Positions 17,436-40,310 of a DNA stretch of 42,635 bases are shown here, one piece after another (the stretch's first letter is position 1; each line of letters begins with the position of its first letter). Origin of the DNA: an uncultured Bacilli bacterium. GTDB lineage: Bacteria; Bacillota_I; Bacilli_A; RF39; UBA660. Position numbers and translations under genes: made by a program. Where the stretch lies: contig CANRLI010000003.1 in the NCBI GenBank assembly GCA_947631475.1, positions 1 through 42,635 of the forward strand, in the 5' to 3' direction. Under the pieces are notes generated by a model. The model did not search any database and had not been told where the DNA came from. It saw nothing but the letters and a program-made list of their open reading frames with translations.

Positions 17436-17436
17436 T

Positions 17437-17460: not shown

Positions 17461-17494
17461 CTTTGGGTAAGCATATGTTTTAATAGGTGAGCTT

Positions 17495-17842
17495 ATGGAA
17501 GAACTATTTATAATGGCTGAAGAAGAAATGAAGTTATTGAAGCAACCTTATGTGGGGACTGAACATTTTTTATTGGCATATTTAAAAAAGAATCCATCTA
17601 TTATGACAATTTCTTATAACACATTTAAAAATTATTTAATAGAAATTATTGGTAGTTCTTATAAAACAAGTGATTACATATTATATACGCCTATCTTAAG
17701 AAGTATTAGAACAAATAAGGATAATGCTAAGGAAGCGGTTTTAGAAATATTAAGTAATACTGATAGTATTGCTTATAATATTTTACTTAGTAAAGGGGTT
17801 AATATTGAAAAGTTATATAATGAAATAAATACTAATGGTTAG
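17495..17842 (+). CDS. Stand-alone Clp N-terminal (ClpC NTD-like) domain protein
   Basis: AEEE..L..PYVGTEHFLLA and DSIAYNILLSKGV motifs, no AAA+ module; SD AGGTGA, own terminator at 17827-17851. Confidence 0.8.
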   Translation: MEELFIMAEEEMKLLKQPYVGTEHFLLAYLKKNPSIMTISYNTFKNYLIEIIGSSYKTSDYILYTPILRSIRTNKDNAKEAVLEILSNTDSIAYNILLSKGVNIEKLYNEINTNG

Positions 17843-17907
17843 TATTTTTTTATTGAGTAAAATGTGTTAAAATAAAAGCACTTAGATTTATGAAAGGTGG
17901 GATAGTT

Positions 17908-19218
17908 ATGAGAATTTATAATTCTTTGACGGATAAGGTAGAAGAATTTGTACCTATTAATGAGGGTAAGGTATCAATGTATGTTTGTGGACCTACAGTA
18001 TACAATTATGTTCATATCGGCAATATGCGTCCAGTATTAACTTTTGACATGGTTTATAATTATTTAAAATACTTAGGTTATGATGTTACATATGCATCTA
18101 ATTTTACTGACGTTAATCCAAAAATTATTATGGCAGCTTCAGAATTAGGTATTACTGAAAGAGAAGTTGCTGATAGGTTTATTAAAGCTTATTTTGATGA
18201 TTTGGAGTCTTATAACTGTTCCCAAATTGATTATCGTCCTCGAGTAATTGAACATATGGACCATATATATGACTTTATTCAGAAGTTAATTGATAAAGAC
18301 ATGGCTTATGAAGTTGATGGTGATGTTTATTTTAGAGTTAATAAAATTAACGATTATGGGGTATTATCTAATCAAAATAGGGAAGAATTAATGAGTGGTG
18401 CTAGAGTTGAAGTTGATGAGAAAAAAGACAATCCTTTAGATTTTGCCCTATGGCGTAAAACAAGTGAAGGTGAACAGTTTGATTCTCCATGGGGTAAGGG
18501 TATTCCAGGATGGCATACAGAGTGTGTCGTAATGATTAATAGTCTTTTTGGGGAAAAAATAGATATTCATGGTGGAGGAGTAGATTTGAAGTTTCCCCAT
18601 CATGAAAATGAAATTGCTCAGAGTATGGCTCTAAATAGTACCCATTTGGCTAATTACTGGATGCACAATGGCCATATTAATGTTAATGGTGAAAAGATGA
18701 GTAAGTCTTTAGGAAACTTTGTTTTAGCAAAAGACTTAATTAAATTACATAGCCCTAATGTTATTAAATTAGCTTTATTTAAAACTCATTATCGTTTACC
18801 TCTTAATTTAACTGATGATTTATTTAATGAAGCAACTATAATAGATAAAAAAATATATGATGCTTTAAAGCAGGCAAATTTAAAAATTCAAATAGAAAAT
18901 TTGCAAGTAGGTAAAACTACACAAGATGAAAATATTAATAAGATAATGGATGAAGATTTTAATACTCCTAATTTAGTTACTTATTTAACTGATTTGGTTA
19001 AAGAATTAAATAGTGCGTTAAGAGGTAATGGCAATATTGAAGAATCATACGATAAAATATTTTTAATTAATAATATATTGGGTTTAAAATATGAGTTGCC
19101 AGTTATGAGTGAAGATGATAAAGAAATTTATAATAAATGGCTTAGTTGTCGAGAAAATAAAGATTTTGAACAAGCTGATCGCTTAAGAGTTGTATTAGCC
19201 GAAAAAAATATAATTTAG
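17908..19218 (+). CDS. cysS: Cysteine--tRNA ligase
   Basis: YVCGPTVY, HIGN, PGWHTEC, DIHGGGVDLKFPHHENE, KMSKS. Confidence 0.98.
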   Translation: MRIYNSLTDKVEEFVPINEGKVSMYVCGPTVYNYVHIGNMRPVLTFDMVYNYLKYLGYDVTYASNFTDVNPKIIMAASELGITEREVADRFIKAYFDDLESYNCSQIDYRPRVIEHMDHIYDFIQKLIDKDMAYEVDGDVYFRVNKINDYGVLSNQNREELMSGARVEVDEKKDNPLDFALWRKTSEGEQFDSPWGKGIPGWHTECVVMINSLFGEKIDIHGGGVDLKFPHHENEIAQSMALNSTHLANYWMHNGHINVNGEKMSKSLGNFVLAKDLIKLHSPNVIKLALFKTHYRLPLNLTDDLFNEATIIDKKIYDALKQANLKIQIENLQVGKTTQDENINKIMDEDFNTPNLVTYLTDLVKELNSALRGNGNIEESYDKIFLINNILGLKYELPVMSEDDKEIYNKWLSCRENKDFEQADRLRVVLAEKNII

Positions 19219-22258: not shown

Positions 22259-22295
22259 AAAAAATTTGGGTTTATCAATGCCCAAATTTTTTTTT
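22259..22295 (+). terminator. Intrinsic terminator
   Basis: AAAAAATTTGGGT / GCCCAAATTTTTT stem plus T tract. Confidence 0.75.
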
Positions 22296-22326: not shown

Positions 22327-22355
22327 TTGAATTTATGCATATGATTTATTATAAT
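22327..22355 (+). promoter_or_regulatory. Sigma-A promoter of giant protease gene
   Basis: TTGAAT-N17-TATAAT, about 30 nt upstream of ATG 22387. Confidence 0.65.
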
Positions 22356-22386
22356 ATCTATGTGTTATGAAGTGTGGGAGGTTTTT

Positions 22387-25300
22387 ATGAAAAGCAGTAA
22401 AATAATTCTAAACTTTATTGTTATTTTGCTATCTTTTTGGATGGTAAATGTTAATGCAGAAAGTTTAGTAAATAAGAGTAGTTATAGTGTGAAGAAAGGA
22501 GAAGAAATAACAGTTTTTGTTGATTTGGATCCAAACAATAATAATAAATATAACTATTCAGCTTTATTAAGTTACGATAATAATGTTTTAGAGATACTTA
22601 ATGAAGATAGTTTTATAAATGATAACGGAGGAGCTAATAGTCTTAGTGAAGTTAGTTATGAAAAGGATAGTCATAAATATGTTTTAGTAACAACGGAAGA
22701 TAGTTTAACAAAAGACGTTATTGAAATTAAATTTAAGGCTAAGGACGATATAAAAATTGATAAGACAGAGATTAGCTTTACTAATATTATTTCTAAGGCC
22801 AATGATCAAGAAAAGAAATTAGAAGATATCAAATTTGATGTGATGATTACGGACGCTTCTAAAGGCAATATGACATTAGTAATAGTTGTAGGAGTTTTAG
22901 CTTTATTATCTTGTTTAGCTTTAGTAGTATATAATATTAAATGTGCACATTCTAAGAAAGTAGTTACTAATAGAAAAAAAGTAAATACTATTTTAGGGGT
23001 TTTATTAGTAGTATTTGTTTTAGGCGATGTAATTACTTTAATTATTAAAAATAATTATAAAGAAGAAATCGTCAATTATGATTTAGATATTATAAATGGG
23101 GTTTCTAAAGATGATGTTCAAAATGACGATAATTCAGATGATAAAACAAGCAATGATAGTAATGTCGACAAAAATAAGCCTGAAACTAATGAAGATATTA
23201 CAACAGGTGGAAATGTAAATGAGGAAGTAGTTGATCCACAATTACCTAGTAATAAACTAACAGCTAAAATTGTTAGTGTTTTAGCAAGTACTTACTATCC
23301 TCATAAAGGCGAAACGATAGAGTTATTAATTGATGTGGCTGACGTGAGTGAATTAGTTCAGTCAGTAATTATTAATGGTAAAGAATACCTTGTCGCCCAA
23401 CACGATGATGGGAAATATGCAATTCAATATCAGGTAAAAGATAGCAGTGGCATAGAAAAACTTACTATTTCTGAATTATGTTTGGCAAATAGCAAGGCTA
23501 AAATATTTTATGAAACAAGCTTAGATGTTTTAAAAGAAAAACCAGTAATTAATGATTTTAAATATAGTGATAGTGAATTAATACCTTTTTTAAGTTTTAA
23601 TGTTGTGGGTAATGATTCTTTTGTTAAAGGAAACTTAATCCTTACTGATCAAGAAGGTAAAACAGTTTTAACAAAAGATGTATCTCTTGGCGATAATAAA
23701 ATTGAATTTGCTGAGTTAAAAAATGGTAATTATAATGTTCAAATTGACGTAACTTATGATCTTGATTCTGATGAATTAAATTATTTTACAGATGAACAAA
23801 ACGAAGGTAAAGACGTTTTAATTGATGAAAAATTAGATATTATTGTTGACTATGATTTAGTATTTAAAGATGCTAAATTAGTTATTGTTGATTCTGATGG
23901 TAAAAATGTTACTCTTGAATTTGTAAGCACTAATGTATCAAAATATAATGTTTCTAAGGTAATAATTAATGATGTTGTATATCCTGTTATTCAAGATAAT
24001 GATAAATTTACGGTAGTAGTTCCATTAGATGGAACTGATAAAAAGAATCTTCATATGAGTGGAGTTGTTCTTGAAAATAATAAAACTATTACCGATGGTG
24101 TTGATGCAACATTTGTTATTTTTAAAGAAAAGCCATCTGTTAAAGATGTAAATATTCAGGTTAATGAAGAAGACGGTAAAGTAAATGTTACTTATGATAT
24201 TGTTGATAATGATAAAGTAACTAGTAAACAGTATGCTATTTTAAAAGACCAAAATGGTAATATTTTAGATCGTCAAGAATTATCAGCTCTTGCCACTGAA
24301 GTTACATTTAATAATGTTAATAAAGCTGGTAAATACAATGTTGAAATAATGGCTGATTATGATGCTGTTGATGGTCAAACTCATAGTAATGAATTAATTG
24401 GTAGTAAAGAATTTGAAATTGCTTTAAAACTAGAAGTACTTGGTGTTGAAGTTGAACCTTATCCTTTAAAAAAGACAGACATTGTAGTTAAATATATTGT
24501 TCAAACAAATGCTCAAGAAGCTATTACAAGTTTCACAGTTAATGGTCAAGAATATGCATCTTCATTACCAGAAGGTAATAAGTATATGATTACGATACCT
24601 GGATATGATGAAGCTGGTCTTAAAGATATCAATTTAACTAGTGTTAAAGTTGGAACGACAAGTGTTGAAACAGCTGTAAGTGTTCAAGTTGATGTATTAA
24701 AAGATGTTCCAACTATAGATTCACCAATATTTGATGATGAAAAAGAAGTACCAACTTTGTCATTTAACTTAAATGATGCTGATGAGGCATTTGTAAGTGG
24801 TAAAATTACTATTACTAATAGTTTGGGAGTAGAAGTAAATACTATTACCATTAATAAGAATAGTAGTATTTATGAGATACCAAATTTGAAAGAAAATGAA
24901 ATTTATAATTATGTAATTCAAGTAACTTATGATTTAGATACTGATAAATTAAGTGTAACTGATGATCAAAACGAGTATACAAATAACTTAATTAATGGCA
25001 TTATTGAAGTTGTTCATGATTATAACTTTGAATTTGATGATTTACATATTGTTAATGTTAATAAAAATGAACAAAAGGTGACTCTTCAGTTTACAAGTAC
25101 AAATGGAACAGTCTTTGGAATAGATAGGGTTACTATTAATGGAACTGATTATCCAGTAGTTAAAGATGGTAATATTTATACTGTTGAAGTGACACTAGAT
25201 AATACAGATGAAACAACTTTAAATTTATCTAATGTTGTCTTAAAAAATGGTCATTCTTTTGAAATAACTGAAAATAATACAGTGACTGTATTTAAAAAAG

Positions 25301-28300
25301 CGCCAACGGTAAGTGATTTGATTATTAATAATGATCAAGCTAATTCATTGGCAGCAACATTTAAATTATTTGATGAGTCTAAAACAGTTACTAAACTAGT
25401 TGTGCAATTAAGAGATAGTTTAGGTAATGTTATTGAAACTAAAGAGCTTGACTTAAGTGCTCGTGACGTTTTATTTACTGATTTAGAAGTAGGAGAATAT
25501 CAAATAGTTATCATTGCTGATTATGATTTAGTAGATGGTAATGTTTATACTGCCCAAGTTTTAGCTAATGATAAATTACATGTCAAAATTATATTAGATA
25601 CTTTAAGTTCTAACATAAATAATAAATATAATAATCATCGAAATGCTTTAAATAGTAATAAGGATGAAGCTAAAAAAGCAATTTTAACTTATGTTATTAA
25701 AGCTAATACTAAAGAAGATGTTAAAGCCTTAGTTATTAATGGCCAAGAATATAATGTTGTAAAATTAGAAGATAATAAGTATCAAGTAACATATATTGTT
25801 CAAGAAAATGCTGGTAAAGAAACAATTAAGGTTGAAAAAATTATTTACGAGAGCGAAGAATATACGATTAATCAAACTAGTGATAATATTAAGCCAACCG
25901 TTGAAGTTGAAGTCTTAAAAAGAAGACCATATACGTCTAATTATATGTCAATCTCTAATTTTAAAGAGCATACTATGACCTTTAAATTTGATTTAAATGA
26001 TCCAGATGGAGCATTAGTTAAAGATGAGAATGGAAACTTAATTAATGCTTATGCTACATTTGCCGGCTTTAAAGATAAAGATGGTAAGAATCCTGAAATT
26101 AAGCTTGGGGCTAATGAAGTAACATTTGTAAATGTAGCTGAATATACAGCTAGAAGATTCCAACCAACGGCAACATTTGATTTAGATACTATAGTTGGTG
26201 AAGATAATTACTATGAACATGAAAATATAACTAGTATTATTGCAATGTTAATTCCTGCAACACAGATAAATGTTCATGATATTAAAACATATAATGATAA
26301 TCAAGAAACTAAGTATTTTAGTAAAGGTGAAGAAGTTAAAGTAACTTTTGAAGCTAGTTCTATTTTCGAAGATGACAATGGAACTAAGTCATACTATTAT
26401 CCTAGTAAAGTAGTAGTTAATGGTAATGAGTATGAAGTTACTAAAAATGGTAATTTTTATACCTTTGTCTTACCTGGGTATACTGAAGCTGGTCAACAAG
26501 AAATAGTTATTAATGATGTTATTCTAAATAATAGTGAAGAAGTAGTTTTAACCGAAAATAATAATGTAACCATTAGTATTTTAAAAGATGAAGTTTCTAT
26601 TACAGATTTCGTTTATAGAGAAGATGATGATGATGCAGAATCGACAGATGTTACAGTTAGTTTTAACGTTAGTGATGTAGATGGAGCTTTAACAGATAGT
26701 AAAATTATTATTACAGATTTAAACGGAAATGAAATAACTCCAAGTACTACTACTATTAAAGATGGAGTAAACACGGTTATATTTAGAGGTGTTTCTAAAA
26801 ATACATATATATTTAAAATTATGGCTTCTTATAATCGTGGTTCTTTAGATGATAAGGAAAATGTAGTTACTGAGGCTGAATTATTAAAACAAGAAATTAA
26901 AGTTCTTAGAAAATCTGACTATAAGATAACTGTCAAAGACTTGTCTTTAATGGGCTTTGATAAGGAAAATAAATTGGCAACATTAAGATTTGTTTTAACT
27001 AATGAATCTGATTATATGTTAACTTCGGTTATGATTAATGGACAAAAATATAATGTTAGACCAGAACAAATTGATTTGGATAGCCAAAATAAAGAAGCTG
27101 CTTATTTAGTAGATATTGAAATATCTGATGATAGTAGATATGAAGTAGTTTTAGAGAAGGTAACTTTGGAAAATGCTAAAGACTTTACTGTTAATGAAAG
27201 TTTAGTATTATTTAAAAATAAACCAGTAATTGATAATTTAGTTTTAACTTATAATGAAGGTGGCCAACTAAAAGGGACATTCAATGTTATAGATGATGAT
27301 GAGACACTAAGTAGTTTATCTGCTGTTTTAAAAGAAACTTTAACTGGTAATGTATTAGAAAAGAAAAATTTGGCTATTACAGATAGAGAAGTGGCCTTTT
27401 CTGTTGCTAATGCTAAAGAATATACAATTGAAATTGTGGCTAGTTATGATTTATTAGATGGTGAAAGCCATCAAGATGAAGTTTTAGTATTTGATAGTTT
27501 AGTTGTTGAACCATCAGTTGAGATAACTTTGAATAATGTTTCTAAAAAGTATCCTAATAAAGGAGAAACAATTGATTTAACCTATAATATAAAATCAAAT
27601 ACTAATGAACAGGTTACAAGCGTGGTAATAGATAACATTGTTTATAATGTTGAATATGTTACGATGGGTGTTTATAAATTATCTTATACTGTACCTAATG
27701 AGGCTGGTATTGTTAGTTTAAATTTGACTAAAGTTAATTTTGTAAATGAAGTGGCAGATTTAGCAGACAAACCTTTTACTACGAAGGTCGATGTTCTAAA
27801 AACAATTCCATCTATTAATTCCTTTACTTCTTTAGATAGAATTGAATCTCAACAAGTACAATTTAGCTTCAATGTAAATGATCCTGATAATGCTTTAGTA
27901 TCTGGTAATATTTGTATAAATGATACATGTAATAATGTTGGACCTGGTAGAAATACACCAATATTTAATGTTCAACCAAATGTTTCTTTAATGGTTGTTA
28001 TAAATATTGATTATGATTTAGATACCGACTTATTAAATGAAGATGGAGAAGATGAAAATAATTCAACTGTATCATTCTCTCAAGAATATAAATTATTAGA
28101 GGATTACGAAGTAAATGTTCTTAATTTAACAACATTTAACAAAAATGCCCAAGCAACTAAATATTTTGCTAAAAATGAAGAGATACAATTAAGATTTAAT
28201 AGTACTAATGCGGCTGCTTTAAATATCAAAAGTGTGGTAATAGATGATCTTTTAGATGAAGCAGATGGCCAATTATATGATGTAGTAAGAGTTCTTAAAA

Positions 28301-31300
28301 AAGATGGAACTTTAGATTATTACTACGTAAATATTAATGGAATGAGCGAAGCGGGTCTTCAAAAACTTAGTATAACTTCAGTCACTTTAGAAAGTGGTAA
28401 AACTATTGGAAGTGATAAATTTAAAGGTGAAGTTGTTCCCGCAACAATAGATATTCTTAAAGAAATACCTATTTTTGAAACACCACAAGTATCTAATGAC
28501 GGTTATGATGTTACAATTAAATTTAATGTTACTGATGTTGATAATGCTTTGGTCGATAGTTATATCATCATAAATGATAAAGATAAAAAGGAAGTAATTA
28601 AACAAAAAGTTGTCGTAGGGACTAATATTGTAAATGTTACTTTGGATCCTGATAATAATTATCTATATTTAATAGAGAAAAATTATAATTTAGATAGTTT
28701 AGATAATGATAATGAAAATGAACAAGATACTTATTTCTTAAAAGATGAACCAATAAATGTCACTAAAAAAGAAGAGCCTAACTTTATAGCAAGACACTTG
28801 ACTGTTCCGAAAAGAGTTAAAGATGGTTCAAAAGTTTTACTGACTTTTGAAAATGAAGTATTATCTTATTATGATGTAGATACTATAAGAATAGATGGTA
28901 TTGATTATAAAGTAACTAAAAATGATAACATTTATTCTCTAGAATTAGAACATGGAGAAAAAGGCTATAACACTATACATGTTGAAAGTGTTACTATGGC
29001 TGGAAAAGTATTTAAAATAAATCGTAGTTTAACTTATATTTATGAAAATGTTGTGCCAACAGTGACATTTGCTAGTGATATTAATGAAGAATTAGAATAC
29101 AATATTGGAACTATTCAATATCAAATAGCTGATCCTGATAATGCCATAAGAAAATTGACTGCTTATATGAAAAATAGTGCGGGAGCAGTTGTTGCAACTC
29201 AAGATATTGAATTAAACGAGTCATCATTAAGCATGTTATTGTTAAGAATATTTAGATATTCAATCGAATTAAAAGCTGAATATGATATTGGTGATGGTAA
29301 AACATTAGAAACAACTTCTCTCTTTATAAAAGAAAAAGTTGCTGAACCAAGAGTAACTATTCTTGAAGAAAAAGTTGAAGAAGAATTATTAAATAAGGGA
29401 GATATTGCTACTTTAACTTATAAAATAAATACTAATATTGATTATGAATTAAAGAAAATTTTTATTGATGAAAATAGTTATAATGTTACAAAAGTAGACT
29501 CTGAAACTGATGACAATATTTATCAAATAAAAGTTCTTCTTGGGGATAAAGCTGGAGCTATTCCATATAAAGTTACTAAAATGCAATTTGGTAATGCTTA
29601 CTATGATGTAAATGATATTAATCCAGTAATAGTTCAAGTTAAAAAAGACGTACCTACATTAACTCATTTCATAATCGATGAAAAGGAAGGTACATTATCT
29701 TTCCAATTAAATGATCCAGATGGAGCTTTAGTTGGTAATTCGAAATTTACTATTTATCAAGAAGATAAGGCTTTAATTGCAAAAGAATTAACTAATGGTG
29801 GAGATACATATACTTATAAAATAAGTGATTTAAAATTAAAACTTAATACAAATTATAATATTAAGGTTGATGCTTCATATAATTTAGTTGATACGAAAGT
29901 AAGAAGCATTAGAACGATAGATTTAGTAGAATCAGTGCAAATTTTTGAAAGAGATTTTAAATTAACTGGACAAGTTGATTATGATTTCCAATATATTAAT
30001 AGAAACTCAGAGTGGGGTTTCTTGATGAGTATGAGTGAACCATTACCATTCGATTTCGAAAGTACTAATGCTTATGGATATAAAGTAGATAGAGTTATAG
30101 TTGATGGTGTTGAATATTCGGCTCATCCTGCTCCTACTCAAAATCATCCTAATAACTATGAAGTTTACTATCAACCTAAATCTTTAGCTAATGAAACAAT
30201 TACAGTTGAAAAAGTAATTTTAGAAAATGGGGCGGCTTTTGATGTTAATGATACATTCAAATTATTCATTGTCTTAAAACCAGCAACGTTTGAAATTACT
30301 GATTTTAGAGAAGATATTAATACACAAACATTAACATTCTTCTATAAATTAAATGATCCAGATAAAACATTAGCTTCTAATTTAAGATTTTACTTAAAAG
30401 ATTCTTCAAATAGATTAATCGAAATGAAAGAAGCTAAAGTTGATGAAGATAGAATAGAATTTAATATTCCAAATCCACCAACTTCTAAATATAATGTAGT
30501 TGTACGTGCTGATGTTTATTTGGCGCCAGGTATGATCTTATATGAAAAAGATGGACCAGCTTTATTAACTAATAGTTTTGATTCTGTTGTTAATACATCT
30601 ATTTTAAGTAGTAAATTATCGACTAGATATCCTAAACAAGGTGATTTAATAACAATTGATTATGATATCAGTAGTTCTAAAGTTGTATTAATAGATCCAG
30701 AAGACCATGAAAATCAAGAAAATGCGATTATTATTAGTTCAGTAATTATTAATGATCAATCATATGATGTAGAACGTTTGGATAATGGCCTATATCGAGT
30801 TTATTACACTGTACAAGACGAAGCAGGCTTAGAAAATATTAAAATAACTCAAATTAATTTCAGTAACAATACGGTTGAATACTTTACAAGAGAAGATACA
30901 GTTGATGTTTTAAAGAAAACACCAAGTGTGATTAATTTTAAATCAGAAAACCTAGTAGCTGCTAATAAAGTTAAATTTACATTTGAAGTATTAGATCCTG
31001 ATAATGTTATAGTTCCAAACTCATTATTTGCAGTAGTAAATGGTCAAAAGCAAACAATCGATATTGGTAAAAACGTTGTAGAATTTGAAGTTAATCCTAA
31101 TGAATTATTACAATTTAGTGTTGAAGCTAACTATGATTTGGATTCAAACGTCCTAAATAATGAAACAGGAGATCAAAACTTATATAGTAGTTATACTATT
31201 TATCAAAAACCATTTATATTATTAACGGATTATAATGTTTCATTTAATAATAAGCAAACATTTAATACTAATGGTGATAATACCAAGTATTTTGAGAAAA

Positions 31301-34300
31301 ATGAAGATATTAAACTATCTTTGGAAATTACAACGGGTGTAGATGCTTTATATCCTGAATATATTGTTATTGATAATAATGAGTATAAATTAGAGAAGGA
31401 TGTAAATACTGAAAACACTTATTATATAACTATAAAAGGATATAACAATGCTGGTATAAATAAGATAGTGATTAATAGTATTACATTAAATAGTGGTAAT
31501 GTTGTTAATTTAAGTAATGAAAGTATTTCAATTGAGGTTCTAAAAGACGTAGTTAAAGTTGAAAGCTTTACCCATAAAGTTGACGAAACCAATGCTGATA
31601 GAGTTGATTTAGATATTAATGTTAGTGATGAAGATGGTTCATTAGTTTCATTAGACTTAGTTGTTAAAGATGAATTTGGTGCTATTGTTAAAACAGATAA
31701 AACTAAATTAACAAATGGTAATAATAAAGTTTCATTTACGATGACTAATGCTGGTAAATATTTTGTAGCAATTAATGCTTCATATGATAGAGATAAAAAT
31801 CTAAATGATGAAGATAATCACTATAATGATCAAAGAATTCATTATGAAATCGTTACTATAACAAGTCGCTATATAGAAATGAAAGATGTTGTAGATGTTC
31901 AGTTATATAATTATGGTAGCGATGGTAGCGTTGAACGAGTTCATAGTTTAAGTGTTGATGATTTGGATGTTATTACTAATAGTTTAGTAAAAGTTACAAT
32001 GAAAGATTTACCTACTTTCTATAGTGAAATAGCAAGTTATCGTGTTCTTGATGGTAAGTTAGTATTAGTTTTAGCTTACGATGATGCGATGATTTACTCT
32101 GATGGCAAACTAATTCCATTAGAAGTAACTTTAGATATATTAAATGATACGGATTATGAATATAGTGGTTCATTTAAGTCATTGTTAGAAGATATGAAAA
32201 ATAATCCAACCAAGAAATTTACATTAACTAAAGATTATGATTTAGATGATTTTGTAACAGATACTGATACTATTGTTGATTTTGAATTTAAAGGTGAAAT
32301 AGATGGTAATGGTCATACTATTAGTAATTTACATAAACCATTATTTAAGACTTTAAGAGATGCAACAATTAAAAATCTAGTTATCAAAGGTGTAGAATTT
32401 AATGATGCCGAAGGTAAAGCAGCAGTTACAATAAATGCATATAATACAACTATTTCTAATATTCATATAGATAATATTACAATTAATGCACCTGGTAAGA
32501 GTCATAATGCTGCTATCGCAGTTAATATATATCAAAAATCAGTAATAGATGGATGTAGTGTTAAAAATTTTGTAATTAATACTACTTATCTAGGTCAACG
32601 TAATTCTAGTATTGTATCTAATATGAGTGATTCAAAAGTTACTAATTGTTATGCCGAAGGTAAAATTACTTCTGGATGGCATTATAATGGTGCGTTAGTA
32701 TCTTATTCAACTAACAATTCTGAAATATCAAATAACATTCTTAATGTTTCTTCTACACCATACTTTAGTGATTCTGAGCAAGGTGGAAATGGCGCATTAT
32801 TAGGACAAGGTCAAGCATTATTAAAAAATAACTTAAGTTTAATGAGTACAAATAATAATGTTTATGCAATTTATAATGCTAAGGGAGCTACTTTAGCAAA
32901 TGGTTCTATGAATAACTATCAATTAGAAGATACTAAGTCTAAGAAAAATAGTGGAGACGCCATAAAAGATATTAAGAAAGAGAACATTAATGAATCATTC
33001 TTTAAAGACTTAGGATTTGATACAAGTTTATGGAATTTAAGCAATGTTTCGTATAGTAACTTGCCGACATTAAAAGGTGCTACAGCATCATTTAGTGATG
33101 ATGGTTATAAACCAAATAATTCTAATGTATATATTCCTGACTTTAATAGATTATCGCATTTAGAAGCTTATAAAGCTGATAAAGAAATAACTTATCATAA
33201 TATGTATAAGTTAATGCCATTCTATGATGCTAAAGACTTAGTTACTGATGGTAATAAGATTAAAGCAGATAGTAACTTAAGTAAAAAGATTATTAAATAT
33301 GTTTTACCTTACGATAAGAATGAACAAATGATATCTGTATTAACAACTGATAATTATAAAGATATTTCTAAAATAAGTGTTGTTTATGAAGATGGCACTG
33401 AAGAAGAATATAATGTAGATTATGATGATTATTATGGAAATGTTGTTTCATATATCATTAGTGATTTAAATATTGGGTATAATTATAATAAATTTGTTAT
33501 AGATAAAAAAGCGAGTATCATTGAAAAATTAGTTGATGAGGCAGCTTCTTATGAATATACAGAAGACTTAGATCCAATAACTGGAGAAAAGGACAGTAGA
33601 TTATATAAAGAATACTTTGATAATGTTACTAAGAATAATATAAGAGACTTTATTGAAAAATCTATAGTAAATGCTGGATACATGCCAACATTTAATAGTG
33701 ATGTCTTAGACAATTTAATGATGCAAGAATTCTTAGATAATAATAAATTAAAACAAATGTTATATGCTTATAATTATTATAAATATTGGTATAGCTTAAA
33801 TATGGATGGTATTGATGTTGCCGATTCAATGATGTTCCATGGTGATGAAATGTTTAGTAGTCGTATGACAATGGCTAACTTGACTAATGAAGTTATTAAA
33901 GGCAATAATGCTGCTACTAATGCTACAGGAAGTTTCTTTAATGGTACGTTAACTAAGTATGTTGAAATGAAAGACTTAGGTGCCTTCTTAAATTACTATG
34001 CGGTTAATTTAACTGATTATCATGATGGTGAAGAGTGGTTTAAAGCTAACTGGAATGGTGGTTATTATACACATATTGAAGCTAGAGATAATGGTGAATT
34101 AATTTCATCTTATTGGGAACATTTACTAGCTAGTACGGCTGTACAAAATACTTTCTTAGCAACATTTACTGTTCCGGCTGATTCAATGTACATTATTGCA
34201 ATGCCTACACAAGTAATGTATGGTTCATTAAGGACATATGCTCAAAATCCTTCTGACAAAGAATCTGAAGGAATGAAGAACTTCTATAAAGGCGTAGAAG

Positions 34301-35991
34301 ATATGAGAAGACAAGCAGGTAATTTCTATACCTTTGCTTATCTATATGTTAAACCAGAAAATATGAATCCATATCATGATATTAACTATGATGTGAGATA
34401 TACTATTAATGATAAAGGGGTACAAGTTTTCAATAATCCATTAACAACTACAGATAATTATCACAAGTATTTTGCTGAAGCATTAAATAAATGGCCAGCA
34501 GCTAATGGTTCTGGAGCTTATGCAAATGGCTTTGAAACATACTGGGTAGTTATTAAACTAATTGGTTCATTTAATGTAGCAACACATGAAACATTACATA
34601 ATCAAGATAGTAAAGTCTTCTTAATGGGTTATGGACGTCGTGGTAATGGAGAAGATTATACAGCCGGTAACTTACAACAATACTTCAATGAAGGATGGAT
34701 AAGTCCTAATGTAATGGAAGACTTTGATAGTACTAAAGATATTACTCAAAACTTCAGTTATAAACGTATTGATACAGATGCTAAATTAAAAGATTATTAT
34801 CAGAAGATGTTTGAAGCTAATGACTTCCTTGATTATATTGAAGCAAAAGCATTTTTAAGACTAACTCCTGATCAACAAGCAGCAGTGGCTGTTCAAGCAT
34901 ATTATCCTAACTTAGAAGGAAAATCCAAAGAAGAGCAAGAAGCTGGTGATTCAGTAGTTGGTTATAGATTCTTAAGTGCTGAGCAAATTAAAAATATGCA
35001 TTTAACAAAGATTGATGATTTATATGATAATCATATTATGTTAAGACCTGGCTTAAGAGAACCAGCAGTGTATTCTCCAGGTGCTGCAACAGATTCATTA
35101 TATAATATTCATTGGTATCAACCACATGCTGATAATGATCGTCCTGACGGACCAAACTTTAAATGGTTGGCTTGGGAAATGGCTGGTATAGGCGGTTATT
35201 ATGATGGTTACATGGCATATTTTAGTCAATCTTATATAGGAGCCAAAACAAATAATCCAGGTTTAAAAACAACAGACTTAATCGCATTACGTTATATAAC
35301 TCAAAATAAGGATATGACATTCAGAAAATATAAACTTGGAAAATATGAAGAAATGGCTAAACATATTGATGATCCTTCTGATTATTTAGATGCCCAAGCT
35401 ATAGAAGAAGCTTATTATAATGCTTTAGTTAAAGATTCTAGTGATTCAAAGAGAAGTTTAGGTAATAGTAAAGCTGTTAAAAAACAATATTATATGAGTG
35501 TAAAAAGAGAAACAAATGACTTTAGAGAAAGTATTTTTTCCCAAAAAACAACAACGACAATAAATTCTGAAGAAATGATTATGTCGTTAGCTCAAGAGGA
35601 AATTAATTCTGAAGCAAAAAGCAACGATGGAGATAATTTTGTAGTATTAGAAAAGAAAACTCCTGATGTTTTAGAAGGTGATACGCCTCCTCATGATAAG
35701 AGTGAAATTAATGATAATATTATTGTTGATAAGCAGGAAGATAATAACAGCGAAGAAGTGAAGAAAGATTATACTTCTGTAAATAGTGATGATATTAAGA
35801 AAGATGATACGGTTTTAGAAGATAACCTAAATGAAGTATCAAAAAATGGAGAAGTAACTCAGGAAGAAAATGCTGATTCTGGAGTTAGTGATGAAGTTAC
35901 TTTAGAAGATTTGCCTAAATTAAAAGACGCAAGTAGCGATGAGGTAACTTCAGAAGATTTACCTAAACTAAAAGAACAATCAAAAAAATAA
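22387..35991 (+). CDS. Giant (~4,534 aa) surface ZmpA/B/C (IgA1 protease, M26)-family zinc metalloprotease
   Basis: Signal peptide, cohesin-like domain, 2 TM, 14 repeat units, then IEMKD..LY, SFKSLL.DM, KPLF, YHNMYKLMPFY, GAYANG, THETLH (34585-34599), GYGRR..GE; SD GGGAGG. Confidence 0.9.
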   Translation: MKSSKIILNFIVILLSFWMVNVNAESLVNKSSYSVKKGEEITVFVDLDPNNNNKYNYSALLSYDNNVLEILNEDSFINDNGGANSLSEVSYEKDSHKYVLVTTEDSLTKDVIEIKFKAKDDIKIDKTEISFTNIISKANDQEKKLEDIKFDVMITDASKGNMTLVIVVGVLALLSCLALVVYNIKCAHSKKVVTNRKKVNTILGVLLVVFVLGDVITLIIKNNYKEEIVNYDLDIINGVSKDDVQNDDNSDDKTSNDSNVDKNKPETNEDITTGGNVNEEVVDPQLPSNKLTAKIVSVLASTYYPHKGETIELLIDVADVSELVQSVIINGKEYLVAQHDDGKYAIQYQVKDSSGIEKLTISELCLANSKAKIFYETSLDVLKEKPVINDFKYSDSELIPFLSFNVVGNDSFVKGNLILTDQEGKTVLTKDVSLGDNKIEFAELKNGNYNVQIDVTYDLDSDELNYFTDEQNEGKDVLIDEKLDIIVDYDLVFKDAKLVIVDSDGKNVTLEFVSTNVSKYNVSKVIINDVVYPVIQDNDKFTVVVPLDGTDKKNLHMSGVVLENNKTITDGVDATFVIFKEKPSVKDVNIQVNEEDGKVNVTYDIVDNDKVTSKQYAILKDQNGNILDRQELSALATEVTFNNVNKAGKYNVEIMADYDAVDGQTHSNELIGSKEFEIALKLEVLGVEVEPYPLKKTDIVVKYIVQTNAQEAITSFTVNGQEYASSLPEGNKYMITIPGYDEAGLKDINLTSVKVGTTSVETAVSVQVDVLKDVPTIDSPIFDDEKEVPTLSFNLNDADEAFVSGKITITNSLGVEVNTITINKNSSIYEIPNLKENEIYNYVIQVTYDLDTDKLSVTDDQNEYTNNLINGIIEVVHDYNFEFDDLHIVNVNKNEQKVTLQFTSTNGTVFGIDRVTINGTDYPVVKDGNIYTVEVTLDNTDETTLNLSNVVLKNGHSFEITENNTVTVFKKAPTVSDLIINNDQANSLAATFKLFDESKTVTKLVVQLRDSLGNVIETKELDLSARDVLFTDLEVGEYQIVIIADYDLVDGNVYTAQVLANDKLHVKIILDTLSSNINNKYNNHRNALNSNKDEAKKAILTYVIKANTKEDVKALVINGQEYNVVKLEDNKYQVTYIVQENAGKETIKVEKIIYESEEYTINQTSDNIKPTVEVEVLKRRPYTSNYMSISNFKEHTMTFKFDLNDPDGALVKDENGNLINAYATFAGFKDKDGKNPEIKLGANEVTFVNVAEYTARRFQPTATFDLDTIVGEDNYYEHENITSIIAMLIPATQINVHDIKTYNDNQETKYFSKGEEVKVTFEASSIFEDDNGTKSYYYPSKVVVNGNEYEVTKNGNFYTFVLPGYTEAGQQEIVINDVILNNSEEVVLTENNNVTISILKDEVSITDFVYREDDDDAESTDVTVSFNVSDVDGALTDSKIIITDLNGNEITPSTTTIKDGVNTVIFRGVSKNTYIFKIMASYNRGSLDDKENVVTEAELLKQEIKVLRKSDYKITVKDLSLMGFDKENKLATLRFVLTNESDYMLTSVMINGQKYNVRPEQIDLDSQNKEAAYLVDIEISDDSRYEVVLEKVTLENAKDFTVNESLVLFKNKPVIDNLVLTYNEGGQLKGTFNVIDDDETLSSLSAVLKETLTGNVLEKKNLAITDREVAFSVANAKEYTIEIVASYDLLDGESHQDEVLVFDSLVVEPSVEITLNNVSKKYPNKGETIDLTYNIKSNTNEQVTSVVIDNIVYNVEYVTMGVYKLSYTVPNEAGIVSLNLTKVNFVNEVADLADKPFTTKVDVLKTIPSINSFTSLDRIESQQVQFSFNVNDPDNALVSGNICINDTCNNVGPGRNTPIFNVQPNVSLMVVINIDYDLDTDLLNEDGEDENNSTVSFSQEYKLLEDYEVNVLNLTTFNKNAQATKYFAKNEEIQLRFNSTNAAALNIKSVVIDDLLDEADGQLYDVVRVLKKDGTLDYYYVNINGMSEAGLQKLSITSVTLESGKTIGSDKFKGEVVPATIDILKEIPIFETPQVSNDGYDVTIKFNVTDVDNALVDSYIIINDKDKKEVIKQKVVVGTNIVNVTLDPDNNYLYLIEKNYNLDSLDNDNENEQDTYFLKDEPINVTKKEEPNFIARHLTVPKRVKDGSKVLLTFENEVLSYYDVDTIRIDGIDYKVTKNDNIYSLELEHGEKGYNTIHVESVTMAGKVFKINRSLTYIYENVVPTVTFASDINEELEYNIGTIQYQIADPDNAIRKLTAYMKNSAGAVVATQDIELNESSLSMLLLRIFRYSIELKAEYDIGDGKTLETTSLFIKEKVAEPRVTILEEKVEEELLNKGDIATLTYKINTNIDYELKKIFIDENSYNVTKVDSETDDNIYQIKVLLGDKAGAIPYKVTKMQFGNAYYDVNDINPVIVQVKKDVPTLTHFIIDEKEGTLSFQLNDPDGALVGNSKFTIYQEDKALIAKELTNGGDTYTYKISDLKLKLNTNYNIKVDASYNLVDTKVRSIRTIDLVESVQIFERDFKLTGQVDYDFQYINRNSEWGFLMSMSEPLPFDFESTNAYGYKVDRVIVDGVEYSAHPAPTQNHPNNYEVYYQPKSLANETITVEKVILENGAAFDVNDTFKLFIVLKPATFEITDFREDINTQTLTFFYKLNDPDKTLASNLRFYLKDSSNRLIEMKEAKVDEDRIEFNIPNPPTSKYNVVVRADVYLAPGMILYEKDGPALLTNSFDSVVNTSILSSKLSTRYPKQGDLITIDYDISSSKVVLIDPEDHENQENAIIISSVIINDQSYDVERLDNGLYRVYYTVQDEAGLENIKITQINFSNNTVEYFTREDTVDVLKKTPSVINFKSENLVAANKVKFTFEVLDPDNVIVPNSLFAVVNGQKQTIDIGKNVVEFEVNPNELLQFSVEANYDLDSNVLNNETGDQNLYSSYTIYQKPFILLTDYNVSFNNKQTFNTNGDNTKYFEKNEDIKLSLEITTGVDALYPEYIVIDNNEYKLEKDVNTENTYYITIKGYNNAGINKIVINSITLNSGNVVNLSNESISIEVLKDVVKVESFTHKVDETNADRVDLDINVSDEDGSLVSLDLVVKDEFGAIVKTDKTKLTNGNNKVSFTMTNAGKYFVAINASYDRDKNLNDEDNHYNDQRIHYEIVTITSRYIEMKDVVDVQLYNYGSDGSVERVHSLSVDDLDVITNSLVKVTMKDLPTFYSEIASYRVLDGKLVLVLAYDDAMIYSDGKLIPLEVTLDILNDTDYEYSGSFKSLLEDMKNNPTKKFTLTKDYDLDDFVTDTDTIVDFEFKGEIDGNGHTISNLHKPLFKTLRDATIKNLVIKGVEFNDAEGKAAVTINAYNTTISNIHIDNITINAPGKSHNAAIAVNIYQKSVIDGCSVKNFVINTTYLGQRNSSIVSNMSDSKVTNCYAEGKITSGWHYNGALVSYSTNNSEISNNILNVSSTPYFSDSEQGGNGALLGQGQALLKNNLSLMSTNNNVYAIYNAKGATLANGSMNNYQLEDTKSKKNSGDAIKDIKKENINESFFKDLGFDTSLWNLSNVSYSNLPTLKGATASFSDDGYKPNNSNVYIPDFNRLSHLEAYKADKEITYHNMYKLMPFYDAKDLVTDGNKIKADSNLSKKIIKYVLPYDKNEQMISVLTTDNYKDISKISVVYEDGTEEEYNVDYDDYYGNVVSYIISDLNIGYNYNKFVIDKKASIIEKLVDEAASYEYTEDLDPITGEKDSRLYKEYFDNVTKNNIRDFIEKSIVNAGYMPTFNSDVLDNLMMQEFLDNNKLKQMLYAYNYYKYWYSLNMDGIDVADSMMFHGDEMFSSRMTMANLTNEVIKGNNAATNATGSFFNGTLTKYVEMKDLGAFLNYYAVNLTDYHDGEEWFKANWNGGYYTHIEARDNGELISSYWEHLLASTAVQNTFLATFTVPADSMYIIAMPTQVMYGSLRTYAQNPSDKESEGMKNFYKGVEDMRRQAGNFYTFAYLYVKPENMNPYHDINYDVRYTINDKGVQVFNNPLTTTDNYHKYFAEALNKWPAANGSGAYANGFETYWVVIKLIGSFNVATHETLHNQDSKVFLMGYGRRGNGEDYTAGNLQQYFNEGWISPNVMEDFDSTKDITQNFSYKRIDTDAKLKDYYQKMFEANDFLDYIEAKAFLRLTPDQQAAVAVQAYYPNLEGKSKEEQEAGDSVVGYRFLSAEQIKNMHLTKIDDLYDNHIMLRPGLREPAVYSPGAATDSLYNIHWYQPHADNDRPDGPNFKWLAWEMAGIGGYYDGYMAYFSQSYIGAKTNNPGLKTTDLIALRYITQNKDMTFRKYKLGKYEEMAKHIDDPSDYLDAQAIEEAYYNALVKDSSDSKRSLGNSKAVKKQYYMSVKRETNDFRESIFSQKTTTTINSEEMIMSLAQEEINSEAKSNDGDNFVVLEKKTPDVLEGDTPPHDKSEINDNIIVDKQEDNNSEEVKKDYTSVNSDDIKKDDTVLEDNLNEVSKNGEVTQEENADSGVSDEVTLEDLPKLKDASSDEVTSEDLPKLKEQSKK
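23260..31870 (+). repeat. 14 degenerate ~205-aa two-domain beta-rich repeats
   Basis: Recurring INGxxY, xG..., [DE][VI]LKxxP, DPDxAL, GxNxVxF and YDLD motifs at regular spacing; boundaries approximate. Confidence 0.8.
35887..35982 (+). repeat. 48-nt tandem duplication encoding SDEVT[LS]EDLPKLK twice
   Basis: Direct reading of DNA and protein. Confidence 0.9.
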
Positions 35992-36013: not shown

Positions 36014-36049
36014 GGTTAAAAGTGTATACTAAGAAAAGTGGTGATGATA

Positions 36050-36547
36050 ATGAAAGTTGTCCATACTTTAAAACCAATATATAATCACGAATCTAAAGTC
36101 TTAATATTAGGAACGATGCCTTCTGTTAAATCTAGAGAAGTAATGTTTTACTATGGACATCCTAAAAATAGATTTTGGGATGTTTTAAGTGCAGTTTATG
36201 AAGAAGAAAAACCATTAAGTAATGAGGATAAAACTAATTTTTTATTAAGACATAAAATTGCTTTATATGATGTTTTAAAAAGTTGTGATATAATTGCTTC
36301 TTATGATAGCTCAATTAAAAATCCTGTGCCTAATGATTTTACTAAAATATTAAAAGTTTCTAATATAAAAGTTATTTTTACTACTGGTCGTAAAGCTACT
36401 GAATTATATAAAAAATATTGTTATGCTCAAACCAAAATAGAAGCTATAATGTTACCGAGTACTTCTTCAGCTAATTGTAAGCTATCTATGAAGGATTTAT
36501 ATGATAATTATTATCAAATTAGAGATATTACAGATAATGAAAATTAA
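36050..36547 (+). CDS. DNA-deoxyinosine (hypoxanthine) glycosylase, UDG superfamily
   Basis: LILGTMPSVKS, FYYGHPKNRFW, LPSTSSAN. Confidence 0.88.
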   Translation: MKVVHTLKPIYNHESKVLILGTMPSVKSREVMFYYGHPKNRFWDVLSAVYEEEKPLSNEDKTNFLLRHKIALYDVLKSCDIIASYDSSIKNPVPNDFTKILKVSNIKVIFTTGRKATELYKKYCYAQTKIEAIMLPSTSSANCKLSMKDLYDNYYQIRDITDNEN

Positions 36548-38649: not shown

Positions 38650-38772
38650 TAATAAAAGGTATTACTATATTAGTCATATAAATATATAAGTTACTATTAC
38701 TATGAATGAAAAGTGCAAATTCTTTTAACATAAATACCAAACTTTTTTTAATACTAATAATAGGTGAAGTTT

Positions 38773-39576
38773 ATGAAAAAGTCGAAGAAATTATATAATT
38801 TATTTTTCTTTGGGTCAATCCTTTTATTTGCTATAAGTTTTTGGTATGTTTTTTCTTGGGGAAAAGATACGGCTAATATAATGAAACTTAGAAATGATAT
38901 TTGGAATGATACGGAGATAATTGAAAGGAACAGTAGTTATGACTTGGTTAATCCCCCATCAAATACAAATGATTTATCTTGGGCTTTTCAAGAGGCTTCC
39001 TTTTTAGAAGTGGACTTTACTGATTTGATTAAAAAGAATGATGAAACAGTAGCATATATAGAAGTTAATGGAACTAATATTTCGTATCCTGTAGTAAAAA
39101 CAATTGATAACGAGTTTTATTTAAACCATTCTTTTGATAAGAAGAAAAATAAAGCAGGTTGGATTTTTTTAGACTATCGTAACAATTTTGATGATTTAAG
39201 CAATAATACAATTATATATGGTCATAAAGTAAAAAATGAGACGATGTTTTCTGAATTAAATAATTTATTAAATGAAGAATGGTTTGATAATTTAGACAAT
39301 CATTTAATCAATATATCAACATTAAAAGAAAATACAATTTGGCAAATTTTTAGTGTTTATACTATTGATGAAGAAAGTTATTATTTAAAAACATTTTTTG
39401 AAAGTGATGAAGAATTTCAAACATACATAGATACAATTTTAGCGCGTAGTAATTTTAAATTTAATACAAATACTAATATTAATGATAAAATACTTACGTT
39501 ATCAACTTGTTATAATACAACTGGTAAAAGAATTGTTATTCATGCAAAATTAATTAAAAAAGGGCTACATTCTTAG
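38773..39576 (+). CDS. srtB: Class B sortase
   Basis: N-terminal TM, ISYPVV, DNEFYLNH, IFLDYRN, NTIIYGH, LTLSTC, KRIVIHAKL (His/Cys/Arg triad). Confidence 0.9.
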   Translation: MKKSKKLYNLFFFGSILLFAISFWYVFSWGKDTANIMKLRNDIWNDTEIIERNSSYDLVNPPSNTNDLSWAFQEASFLEVDFTDLIKKNDETVAYIEVNGTNISYPVVKTIDNEFYLNHSFDKKKNKAGWIFLDYRNNFDDLSNNTIIYGHKVKNETMFSELNNLLNEEWFDNLDNHLINISTLKENTIWQIFSVYTIDEESYYLKTFFESDEEFQTYIDTILARSNFKFNTNTNINDKILTLSTCYNTTGKRIVIHAKLIKKGLHS

Positions 39577-40310
39577 TAGTCCCTTTTGTATAATTTAAAT
39601 CCAAAAAAGCAAATACTTATAATACTTATTATTTCGATTGTTAAATAAATTGTTATTGTATCAGCTGTATATGGGTTATCTTCTTGGATACCGAAAAGTT
39701 CATTAATTTTAGCTAGTGAAAGTTCTTCTTTAGGCATTATATCTTTATCAACACCATTTATTTCTAAAACACCTTTAGTCGTATCTTCTGGAACCCATAA
39801 TGTTGGTTTATTTGTTGCTTCTGTTTTATTAACTATTTTAGCATCGTCTTTTAAACTTAATTTGGGAATTTCGGTAACATTACTTCCTTGACCTAATTCA
39901 ATGCCACCAAAACCATTTCCAGATACATCTATAATACCAAGAAAGGTTACTAAAGATCCGTTAATTAATAAACCTGCGTTACCACCTGTTAATTTAATAT
40001 CCTTAATAGTTGCTGTACTTTTGTAAATTTGGAGAACATATACTCCGTCCCAAATTGTGTTATCATTACTTCTATCACTGCCAAAAGTTCCAACATATTT
40101 CATAGTATGATTAGCACCATCTATATAAAGATCTCTTGTTATATTAATTTTTTGAGTTGTTTCAATATCATTTTTTAATACAATTGTATCAATGTCTTCG
40201 TCTTGAAGAGCTTCTAGAAATTCTTGTTGGTTACTAACAAAACTTGATTGAGCATTAACAAATACAGCTGGTAGTAAAAATATAGCTAACAAAAAAATTA
40301 ATTTTTTCAT
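39573..40310 (-). CDS. Small secreted beta-helix-like protein with C-terminal sorting signal (likely sortase substrate)
   Basis: Signal peptide (VNA/QS), IVLKNDI...IDGANHT, GGNAGLLING, SGNGFGGIE; NPYTA + hydrophobic stretch + KLYKR tail. Confidence 0.75.
   Translation of the reverse strand: MKKLIFLLAIFLLPAVFVNAQSSFVSNQQEFLEALQDEDIDTIVLKNDIETTQKINITRDLYIDGANHTMKYVGTFGSDRSNDNTIWDGVYVLQIYKSTATIKDIKLTGGNAGLLINGSLVTFLGIIDVSGNGFGGIELGQGSNVTEIPKLSLKDDAKIVNKTEATNKPTLWVPEDTTKGVLEINGVDKDIMPKEELSLAKINELFGIQEDNPYTADTITIYLTIEIISIISICFFGFKLYKRDY

Follow-up and report, generated by a model that had tools for sequence, protein, structure and literature searches.

A predicted M26-family metallopeptidase of 4,534 residues on a stalk of alternating domains in an uncultured Bacilli bacterium

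Introduction

The locus examined here raises the question of what a single gene of 13.6 kb, which takes up 1.2% of an assembly of 1.1 Mb, does for an uncultured bacterium. The stretch of DNA analysed, referred to below as the window, consists of positions 1 to 42,635 of contig CANRLI010000003.1 (GenBank assembly GCA_947631475.1; Bacilli, GTDB lineage RF39, UBA660), has a GC content of about 27% and comes from a fragmented metagenome-assembled genome (MAG) of 84 contigs that is 87% complete. The gene (22387..35991, forward strand, stop codon included) encodes a protein of 4,534 amino acids (aa), for which the protein collection contains an identical entry (P0002) with exactly the same start. 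A preliminary description, made from the sequence alone, had read the product as a giant protease of the IgA1-protease/Zmp family (M26) on a very long stalk in a non-streptococcal bacterium, and the source is indeed a small-genome Bacillota MAG. To our knowledge, M26 enzymes have been described almost exclusively as virulence factors of about 2,000 aa from streptococci and Gemella, and what most of them cleave is still disputed. The comparisons reported here make it probable that the window protein is an active cell-surface M26 zinc metalloendopeptidase held far from the cell, and they place it in a known protease family, of which it is a new variant in architecture.

The M26 module and its zinc site

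Profile scans of the whole protein did not find the protease: Pfam returned three marginal Ig-like matches and no M26 family, and NCBIfam returned no match. Taken as a refutation of the M26 assignment this result was rejected, since scans of separate parts score above the curated cut-offs; the miss reflects the low sensitivity of such scans for a protein of this length and repetitiveness. When the C-terminal part was scanned alone, both M26 profiles matched. The Peptidase_M26_N match, covering the beta-helix/N-terminal part of the M26 region, lies at 31759..32469 (+), scores 64.4 bits (cut-off 27.7) and spans profile positions 8–248 of 250; in a translation started at 31870 it begins at residue 2, in agreement with the complete module claimed from about 31873. 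The Peptidase_M26_C match, covering the catalytic domain (33439..35361, +), scores 67.5–71.5 bits (cut-off 22), the value depending on the scope of the scan: 71.5 bits for a 667-aa part and 67.5 bits in the profile search of the genome, with 65.5 bits for the C-terminal 1373 aa. That genome search found the M26_C match of this gene as the sole copy in the assembly. With the 4,543-aa entry P0001, hmmscan misses Peptidase_M26_N, Peptidase_M26_C and the ZmpA–D models, and the parts scored alone give 58.7–157 bits.

Comparison with solved structures extended the match beyond the two profiles. A phmmer search of the Protein Data Bank (PDB) with the C-terminal 1373 aa aligned query residues 3–1163 with chain residues 8–1203 of the pneumococcal IgA1 protease, giving E values of 4e-34 to 2e-33 for 7jgj, 6xjb and 6xja (constructs of 1285–1290 residues). 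According to passages of PMC9637739, the authors of the structure divide the solved M26 region into NTD1/NTD2, MD and CTD. As judged from the alignment, the query match covers the whole of this region, i.e. the NTD, the beta-helix MD and the catalytic CTD.

The zinc-binding and catalytic motif HETLH (34585..34599, +; H4067, E4068 and H4071 in the numbering of the 4,534-aa protein) is intact, and a Glu located 18 residues past the second His (E4089; 34651..34653, +), the likely third zinc ligand, stands in a conserved Glu-Asp-Tyr context, at the position given for it in the preliminary description. The context HExxHNQDSK..GYGRRG..EDY is common to relatives P0003–P0026, and HExxH and the downstream Glu are intact in every relative displayed in the family alignment. 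From these sequence features the C-terminal part is assigned to the M26 family (IgA1-protease/Zmp; Pfam PF05342 and PF07580), with a zinc site predicted to be intact. In the alignment around the site (HEMTHDSDQDIYLGGYGRRnGLGPEF in the pneumococcal enzyme, HETLHNQDSKVFLMGYGRR.GNGEDY in the window protein) the His-Glu spacing is 18 residues as compared with 20, so that the shorter spacing noted earlier stands. Its suggested bearing on specificity finds no support, because the loop from GRR to Glu varies across the family: in 42 relatives the length of the GRR...E loop lies between 18 and about 30 residues, the segment reading GNG, G.A or GKDGNS in close relatives, where Glu-Asp-Tyr is kept, and being much longer in others. 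Past the catalytic domain, the protein ends in an acidic low-complexity tail (35362..35988, +) with two DEVT(L/S)EDLPKLK copies and no sorting signal.

The size comparison made at the outset also stands, the 4,534 aa of the window protein being more than twice the size of the streptococcal Zmps, for which the NCBIfam models have 1812–2181 positions. The M26 region scored 157 bits with ZmpB, 124.9 with ZmpA, 103.4 with ZmpC and 98 with ZmpD, all of which have a cut-off of 3000; the best of these matches, ZmpB, had an E value of 3.7e-46 over model positions 819–1892. No LPXTG-like motif ([LIVF]P.[TSA]G) was found in the whole protein, and no match to a wider sortase-like pattern in the 24 residues around the start of the first hydrophobic helix. 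Pfam scans of the whole protein (insensitive here), of the N-terminal 347 aa and of 12 stalk segments showed no G5 domain. Identity with ZmpA, B, C or D is ruled out by scores of 98–157 bits against 3000 and by the lack of LPXTG and G5. Metallo-IgA1 proteases are described in passages of Redzic et al. (PMC9637739) as sharing three features, namely LPXTG, G5 and the M26 region, and the window protein shows only the last of them.

An N-terminal cohesin-type domain and membrane hairpin

At the other end of the protein, a signal peptide (MKSSKIILNFIVILLSFWMVNVNA; 22387..22458, +), recognized as a hydrophobic segment with its cleavage site placed by eye, is followed by a domain of about 135 aa, two 19-residue hydrophobic segments split by a basic loop, and an acidic linker. 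The domain contains a cohesin-type match (22486..22827, +) that scores 30.3 bits with Pfam Cohesin (PF00963) in the genome profile search (cut-off 24.1, E 3.3e-7). A profile of 10 Cohesin-positive homologues matched it with an E value of 6.5e-23 and an hhalign probability of 99.5%, and the best cohesin match of the N-terminal profile in the PDB was Clostridium perfringens NagJ (E 0.004). Hydrophobic helix 1 of the predicted membrane hairpin (22873..22929, +) has a mean hydropathy of 2.98 and no sortase-like motif before it, hydrophobic helix 2 (22990..23046, +) has no Ala-x-Ala-like site after it, and the loop between the two is rich in Lys and Arg (KCAHSKKVVTNRKKVNT). The acidic low-complexity linker that follows (23047..23268, +) aligns with the dockerin of relatives and lacks calcium loops (no D.N.DG loop). 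The membrane anchoring at the N-terminal end that had been suggested is thus matched by a signal peptide and two hydrophobic helices.

The N-terminal alignment comprised 13 sequences, i.e. the window protein and 12 relatives, with Cohesin in 10 of the 13 and Dockerin_1 in 8, the dockerin following immediately on the second helix. In the set of 42 relatives, most have a signal peptide and two hydrophobic segments in matching positions, and 33 have a hydrophobic helix past residue 60. A sortase-like motif just before helix 1 was seen by pattern in five of these 33 N-termini (IPKTG and LPAAG in relatives with four stalk units; IPVAG, VPVVG and LPVIG in three larger ones), and the four-unit relatives have an Ala-x-Ala-like site after helix 2 and then the dockerin. 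The four-unit entries P0029, P0034, P0035, P0038 and P0040–P0043 carry, in order, a signal peptide, a cohesin, a sortase-like motif (IPKTG, LPAAG, xPTGD), a helix, a basic loop, a second helix with an Ala-x-Ala-like end and a dockerin. The four-unit relatives look like cases of one gene making both socket and plug. The window protein keeps the cohesin and both helices, is without the sortase-like motif and the Ala-x-Ala site, and has only a degenerate dockerin remnant. This combination points to the hairpin itself as the anchor, and the protein is probably held directly by it in the membrane.

The stalk of alternating X and Y domains

The two ends are separated by a region of repeats, put at about 2,870 aa in the preliminary description and located here at about aa 303–3170 of the open reading frame (ORF), in which 14 X and 14 Y domains alternate strictly. 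Iterated profiles place these 14 X-Y pairs (28 domains; 23269..31869, +) at ORF residues 312–3162, with about 200 aa per pair; X has similarity to BIg-type extender domains found in giant adhesins, and Y has no assigned family. X and Y show no detectable relation to each other (hhalign probability 5.7%). The X profile matched SiiE in the PDB (2yn3, E 1.7e-6, over only about 40 residues) and region RII of the MpAFP/RTX adhesin (4p99 and 5irb, E 1.5e-4 to 1.7e-4). Pfam scans of 77 double units gave no family above cut-off, the weak matches being to FlgD_ig (5), fn3 (3), Filamin (3) and GBD_IRG7_N (3). From these profile matches the stalk would consist of alternating beta-sandwich domains. The copies are mutually 25–40% identical in a self-comparison, and the longest direct DNA repeats reach only 30–73 nt at 60–84% identity, so that a collapse of repeats during assembly is unlikely; the array is an old one and did not arise in assembly.

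Orthologue, selection and independent coverage

In G008, another species of the genus, the place between FemAB and UvrB is likewise taken by a collinear orthologue of 4,528 aa, which shows 73% overall identity, only 48 gap columns and the same 14 pairs. In a Nei-Gojobori-type count between the window gene and this orthologue, dN/dS was 0.13 for both M26 parts, the catalytic domain (0.125) being the most conserved part of the protein, 0.17 for the cohesin, 0.28 for the stalk (0.44–0.56 in the two membrane-proximal pairs, 0.15–0.21 in pairs 10–14), 0.36 for the C-terminal tail and about 0.65 for the hairpin plus linker. The tail and the post-hairpin linker are the fastest-diverging parts, and purifying selection acts on the gene over its entire length. 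In four runs from two further studies, contigs span 29–30 of 30 bins, for the most part with at least 95% identity and with no indels listed. The sequence is present in 11 runs of four studies, of which seven are labelled rabbit gut metagenome and the rest have coded labels; the best-matching run may be the source sample. The gene is real and functional.

Distribution of the architecture

An exhaustive HMMER search of 1.84 billion representatives gave 456 clusters at E<=1e-3, 320 at 1e-10 and 175 at 1e-30, and a word-based search (2,498–7,951 aa) found 42 proteins of 2,783–7,362 aa among 1,409 candidates scored. Four or more X/Y hits were present in 93 of the 119 homologues of at least 2,000 aa. 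Protein length followed the X+Y count (r = 0.95) over a range of 4 to 24 units, about 4 pairs giving 2,400–3,500 aa, 12–16 pairs 4,000–5,000 aa and 22–24 pairs 6,000–7,362 aa. Within the genus, strong X-Y matches occurred only in M26-positive genomes, where they lay in the M26 reading frame (G000, G005 with two genes, G008 and G012) or on a separate contig (G015), with one weak match in G003; in the genome of the window itself, X-Y matches were confined to the giant M26 gene. The architecture is selected as a unit. In G015, a 2,545-aa frame with stalk units (C73) and a 1,063-aa frame with M26 (C18), both short of full length, are probably pieces of a further giant gene that was interrupted in assembly. 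The homologue in two related loci (L010, 1–12436; L011, 1–10609) is split into two adjacent frames (1,349 + 2,812 aa and 1,526 + 2,026 aa, respectively), through either a frameshift or an assembly error.

Of 24 other genomes of the genus, 4 contain PF07580, as do none of 16 genomes sampled from other families of the class; in an even sample of 400 genomes of the class it occurred in 11 (nine of them over the cut-off), in 9 of 219 genera. Two close species (G010 and G012), with UvrB 92–93% identical, have FemAB, a FemAB-like fragment, the UDG-family gene and UvrB in a row at this site with no giant gene among them, which indicates that the gene is polymorphic for presence or absence there; the remaining 13 stretches in this locus comparison were non-syntenic and uninformative. 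Nine close loci in genome collections came from MAGs labelled Bacilli, Clostridia or Lachnospiraceae (58–87% identity), one of which may be the G008 orthologue again. Within the genus M26_C has diverged faster than UvrB (87% as against 92% identity), and in four MAGs with Clostridia or Lachnospiraceae labels the two are equally distant (58–59% and 57–60%). The pattern gives a hint of horizontal spread of the M26 gene, a comparison that is suggestive only, because UvrB identity saturates.

In a FastTree phylogeny of 83 catalytic modules, the window protein fell into a fully supported clade of 23 rows, 20 of which are at least 3,800 aa long, and the genes of about 2,460 aa from the same genus formed the sister clade. 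Rows with less than 80% query cover or a span over 1,500 aa (including P0016, P0019, P0023 and P0027–P0032) had been left out of this tree, as had the redundant rows P0184–P0195. Elsewhere in the class, two genomes of about 0.8 Mb carry Peptidase_M26_C matches of 272–276 bits with 7–8 in-frame TGA codons (G088:C3:158426-160747 and G126:C1:477386-479710), which points to M26 genes in lineages where TGA codes for Trp. In one Lachnospiraceae-labelled MAG (L008), a type II-A CRISPR-Cas system (Cas9, Cas1, Csn2; 12566–18549) lies directly downstream of the giant M26 gene, and this locus has a GC content of 38% compared with 26–28% in other related loci.

M26 genes outside Streptococcus are already in databases, where one NCBI-named relative is called "ZmpA/ZmpB/ZmpC family metallo-endopeptidase-related protein". 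Twenty clusters that were looked up yielded a name in two cases only (Zmp-family-related protein, Clostridium sardiniense; InlB-repeat protein, Adlercreutzia), and ten NCBI-sourced relatives (3,072–7,362 aa) had no protein names. To judge from titles and the opening parts of abstracts, the papers listed for Peptidase_M26/PF07580 deal with streptococci or Gemella or mention the family incidentally. In a literature search that did not extend to supplements, no description of the architecture of cohesin, hairpin, optional dockerin, (X-Y)n stalk and M26 was found; nor was any publication found on M26 combined with cohesin or dockerin, or anything relevant on giant gut Ig-like metalloproteases. The preliminary description had ranked the gene as a candidate new system, which goes too far for one stand-alone gene that belongs to a known catalytic family and whose architecture recurs in at least 93 database proteins.

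The gene and its neighbours

The uninterrupted ORF extends over more than 13.6 kb (22360..35991, +; 4543 codons) and contains two candidate start codons. The Shine-Dalgarno sequence GGGAGG, read from the sequence at 22376..22381 (+), stands 5 nt before the ATG at 22387, and a sigma-70-type promoter-like site, TTGAAT-17-TATAAT (22327..22355, +), has 10 of 12 matches, a weak signal in that the frequency of such sites is no lower than in shuffled sequences. As the TATAAT ends at 22355, the ATG at 22360 would lie at or before the expected transcript start, making 22387 the likelier start; it is also the start claimed earlier and the one at which P0002 begins. A terminator-like hairpin (22259–22292) closes the upstream FemAB gene. 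The neighbours are LysRS, CysRS, a zinc peptidase and FemAB upstream and a UDG-family gene, UvrB and a sortase downstream, i.e. housekeeping genes, so that the giant gene looks monocistronic and stand-alone. Rfam and tRNA scans of the window gave no matches.

The small UDG-family gene (36038–36547, +), which lies between the giant gene and uvrB, is also present in G010 and G012 and was not found by tblastn in the G008 locus, where the gap between the giant gene and uvrB is about 240 bp. Further downstream, the sortase gene (38764–39576, +) lies tail to tail with a secreted-protein gene (39573–40310, −), whose product combines a Pectate_lyase_5 adhesive domain with a C-terminal end made up of NPYTAD, a hydrophobic stretch and KRDY; the two are a possible sortase-substrate pair with a non-LPXTG signal. 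An ORF of 986 aa in the upstream part of the window (7030–9990, +) has no Pfam family, and its C-terminal portion of about 400 residues is low-complexity sequence rich in Pro, Val, Lys, Ser and Thr.

Discussion

In the reading favoured here, the N-terminus would be exported by way of the Sec signal peptide, the cohesin-type domain would remain outside the cell, and the two hydrophobic helices would form a membrane hairpin with the Lys/Arg-rich loop inside, the remaining ~4,300 residues then being threaded out. The acidic linker and the 28 predicted beta-sandwich domains (14 X-Y pairs) would make up a stalk reaching beyond wall and capsule, which from general knowledge of such domains we take to be roughly 100 nm long or more if extended. 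At its distal tip, the complete M26 region, with a zinc site gated like that of IgA1 proteases, would cleave extracellular proteins. All characterised M26 enzymes known to us act on host proteins and, by analogy, the most likely target would be a segment of a host protein that is rich in proline and O-glycosylated, either an antibody hinge or of mucin type. Passages of PMC12402451 and PMC9637739 describe the cleavage of IgA1 at a Pro-Thr bond of the hinge, and host targets of ZmpC and ZmpB that have been proposed and are partly disputed.

Several observations weigh against parts of this reading. Cohesin was absent from two hmmscans (E up to 10 and up to 1, respectively) of the same stretch that scored 30.3 bits in the genome search, and Dockerin_1 had no match in the organism's own 87%-complete genome, which bears on the role of a cohesin there. 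The best PDB match of the Y profile (E 0.016) is not significant, and the folds of X and Y, like the extended stalk, would be read from weak sequence matches. At the zinc site, the HMMER pairwise alignment sets the zinc-ligand Glu of the pneumococcal enzyme opposite the Asp adjoining E4089, so that either of these two acidic residues may be the ligand. Among the listed runs that contain the sequence there is no RNA run. Finally, comparison of the window with six related loci (L008, L009, L011, L012, L013 and L015) revealed no conserved neighbour that could serve as a clue to the substrate, the genes that vary among related loci including those for Cas9, Sua5, GH18-SH3, LD-carboxypeptidase, LytR and GH5.

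Other explanations of the gene differ in what the M26 head is for. We consider it unlikely that the protein is mainly a fibrillar adhesin, in which the M26 region would be a binding head for a glycoprotein of the host or of a partner cell, with proteolysis secondary or lost. Such a role would suit the resemblance of the X domains to extender domains in SiiE and MpAFP, both giant adhesins, and it finds parallels in the M26_N-like beta-helix cluster that a section of a fibrillar-adhesin survey places among putative adhesive tips (10.1101/2021.12.07.471604) and in the tight binding of IgA1 by catalytically dead M26 mutants that is reported in passages of PMC9637739. However, HExxH and the downstream Glu are intact in the window protein and in every relative displayed, and no part is more conserved than the catalytic domain (dN/dS 0.125), as expected if catalysis matters. 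A protease aimed at the diet is quite unlikely in our estimate; here a cellulosome-like surface toolkit in a herbivore hindgut would include an enzyme for the hydroxyproline-rich O-glycoproteins of plant cell walls (extensins and arabinogalactan proteins). These plant glycoproteins are rich in Pro/Hyp and O-glycosylated, relatives have the anchor framed by cohesin and dockerin (10 and 8 of the 13 aligned N-termini, respectively), a GH5 cellulase lies near one related locus, and runs containing the sequence are labelled rabbit gut metagenome. Yet cohesin-dockerin pairs also serve degraders of host glycans (NagJ is the best PDB cohesin match, at only E 0.004), no conserved plant-fibre genes lie beside the giant gene, and its own genome has no dockerin.

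It would be a still more basic objection if the gene were a mis-assembled repeat array or a decaying pseudogene. The MAG is fragmented (84 contigs, 87% complete) and a homologue is split in L010 and L011, but the 13.6-kb frame is uninterrupted and has no long DNA repeats, the G008 orthologue is collinear and under purifying selection between syntenic flanking genes, and contigs from other studies tile the gene without indels. Artefact or dead gene is thus extremely improbable, this explanation being effectively refuted by the open frame, the orthologue and the independent contigs.

With a surface-held M26 protease retained as the probable reading, one more specific proposal concerns its substrate. 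Proteins of the cohesin-hairpin-(X-Y)n-M26 type may be radiating antibody-hinge proteases of gut commensals, in which the 4 to 24 X-Y units would tune the distance from the cell at which incoming secretory IgA is cut; we put this forward as a doubtful idea. For rabbits, the host named in the labels of seven runs that contain the sequence, passages of PMC6082545, PMC10435986 and PMC9247829 report 14–15 IgA subclasses, distinguished chiefly by the length and make-up of the hinge, and attribute this diversity to bacterial protease pressure, tested there only with proteases of human pathogens. If the proposal were true, the family would be the missing microbial side of a rabbit IgA-hinge arms race.

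Whatever the substrate, the proteins compared here form a second, larger and structurally distinct M26 branch in uncultured gut Firmicutes, with a stalk of 4 to 24 X-Y units and an anchor that has either a single-gene cohesin-dockerin layout or, as predicted for the window protein, a bare membrane hairpin. The cell pays a lot for this gene, given its share of the assembly and the purifying selection on it. If the targets are host antibodies or mucins, such proteins would be major commensal tools for coping with mucosal immunity and a new source of hinge- or mucin-specific proteases. For genome annotation there is a pitfall, in that whole-protein hidden Markov model scans miss the protease domain of these giants.

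Comparison with known systems

A close characterised counterpart is the Streptococcus pneumoniae IgA1 protease (ZmpA; 6XJA/6XJB/7JGJ), with which the window protein shares the HExxH motif with YGRR behind it, the downstream Glu, and an M26 region at the C-terminal end of a large surface protein with hydrophobic helices near its N-terminus. The two sequences are distant (HMMER accuracy 0.67 over the match), and the window protein differs in a His-Glu loop shorter by two residues, in the lack of an N-terminal LPXTG or G5, in a cohesin-type domain before the hairpin and in a 2,870-aa X-Y stalk in place of the unstructured/G5 region. The IgA1 protease of Gemella haemolysans (7UVK/7UVL) likewise has an M26 region outside Streptococcus (E 1e-32, query 97–1127), but according to passages of PMC9637739 it has LPXTG, G5 and an extra trypsin-like domain, none of which was found in the window protein. 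Scores with ZmpB, ZmpC and ZmpD of mitis-group streptococci (NF046019, NF046021 and NF046024) are far below the 3000-bit cut-offs, and the window protein sits in a clade of its own, nearly all members of which are at least 3,800 aa long, in a tree without named streptococcal sequences.

The anchor and the stalk have parallels in other systems. The cohesin-dockerin pairing of C. perfringens glycosidases (NagJ, 2JH2/2OZN) resembles that of the relatives of the window protein, which carry both a cohesin and a dockerin, in contrast to the window protein with its cohesin and only a dockerin remnant. The X-domain profile matches SiiE of Salmonella (2YN3/2YN5) and region II of MpAFP/MpIBP of Marinomonas (4P99, 5IRB), where many tandem beta-sandwich domains likewise set the reach of a distal functional head. 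Those adhesins come from Gram-negative bacteria, are secreted by the type-1 route, are built of near-identical repeats and lack a protease, whereas the window protein alternates two unrelated, old and diverged domain types, and its head is predicted to be an enzyme.

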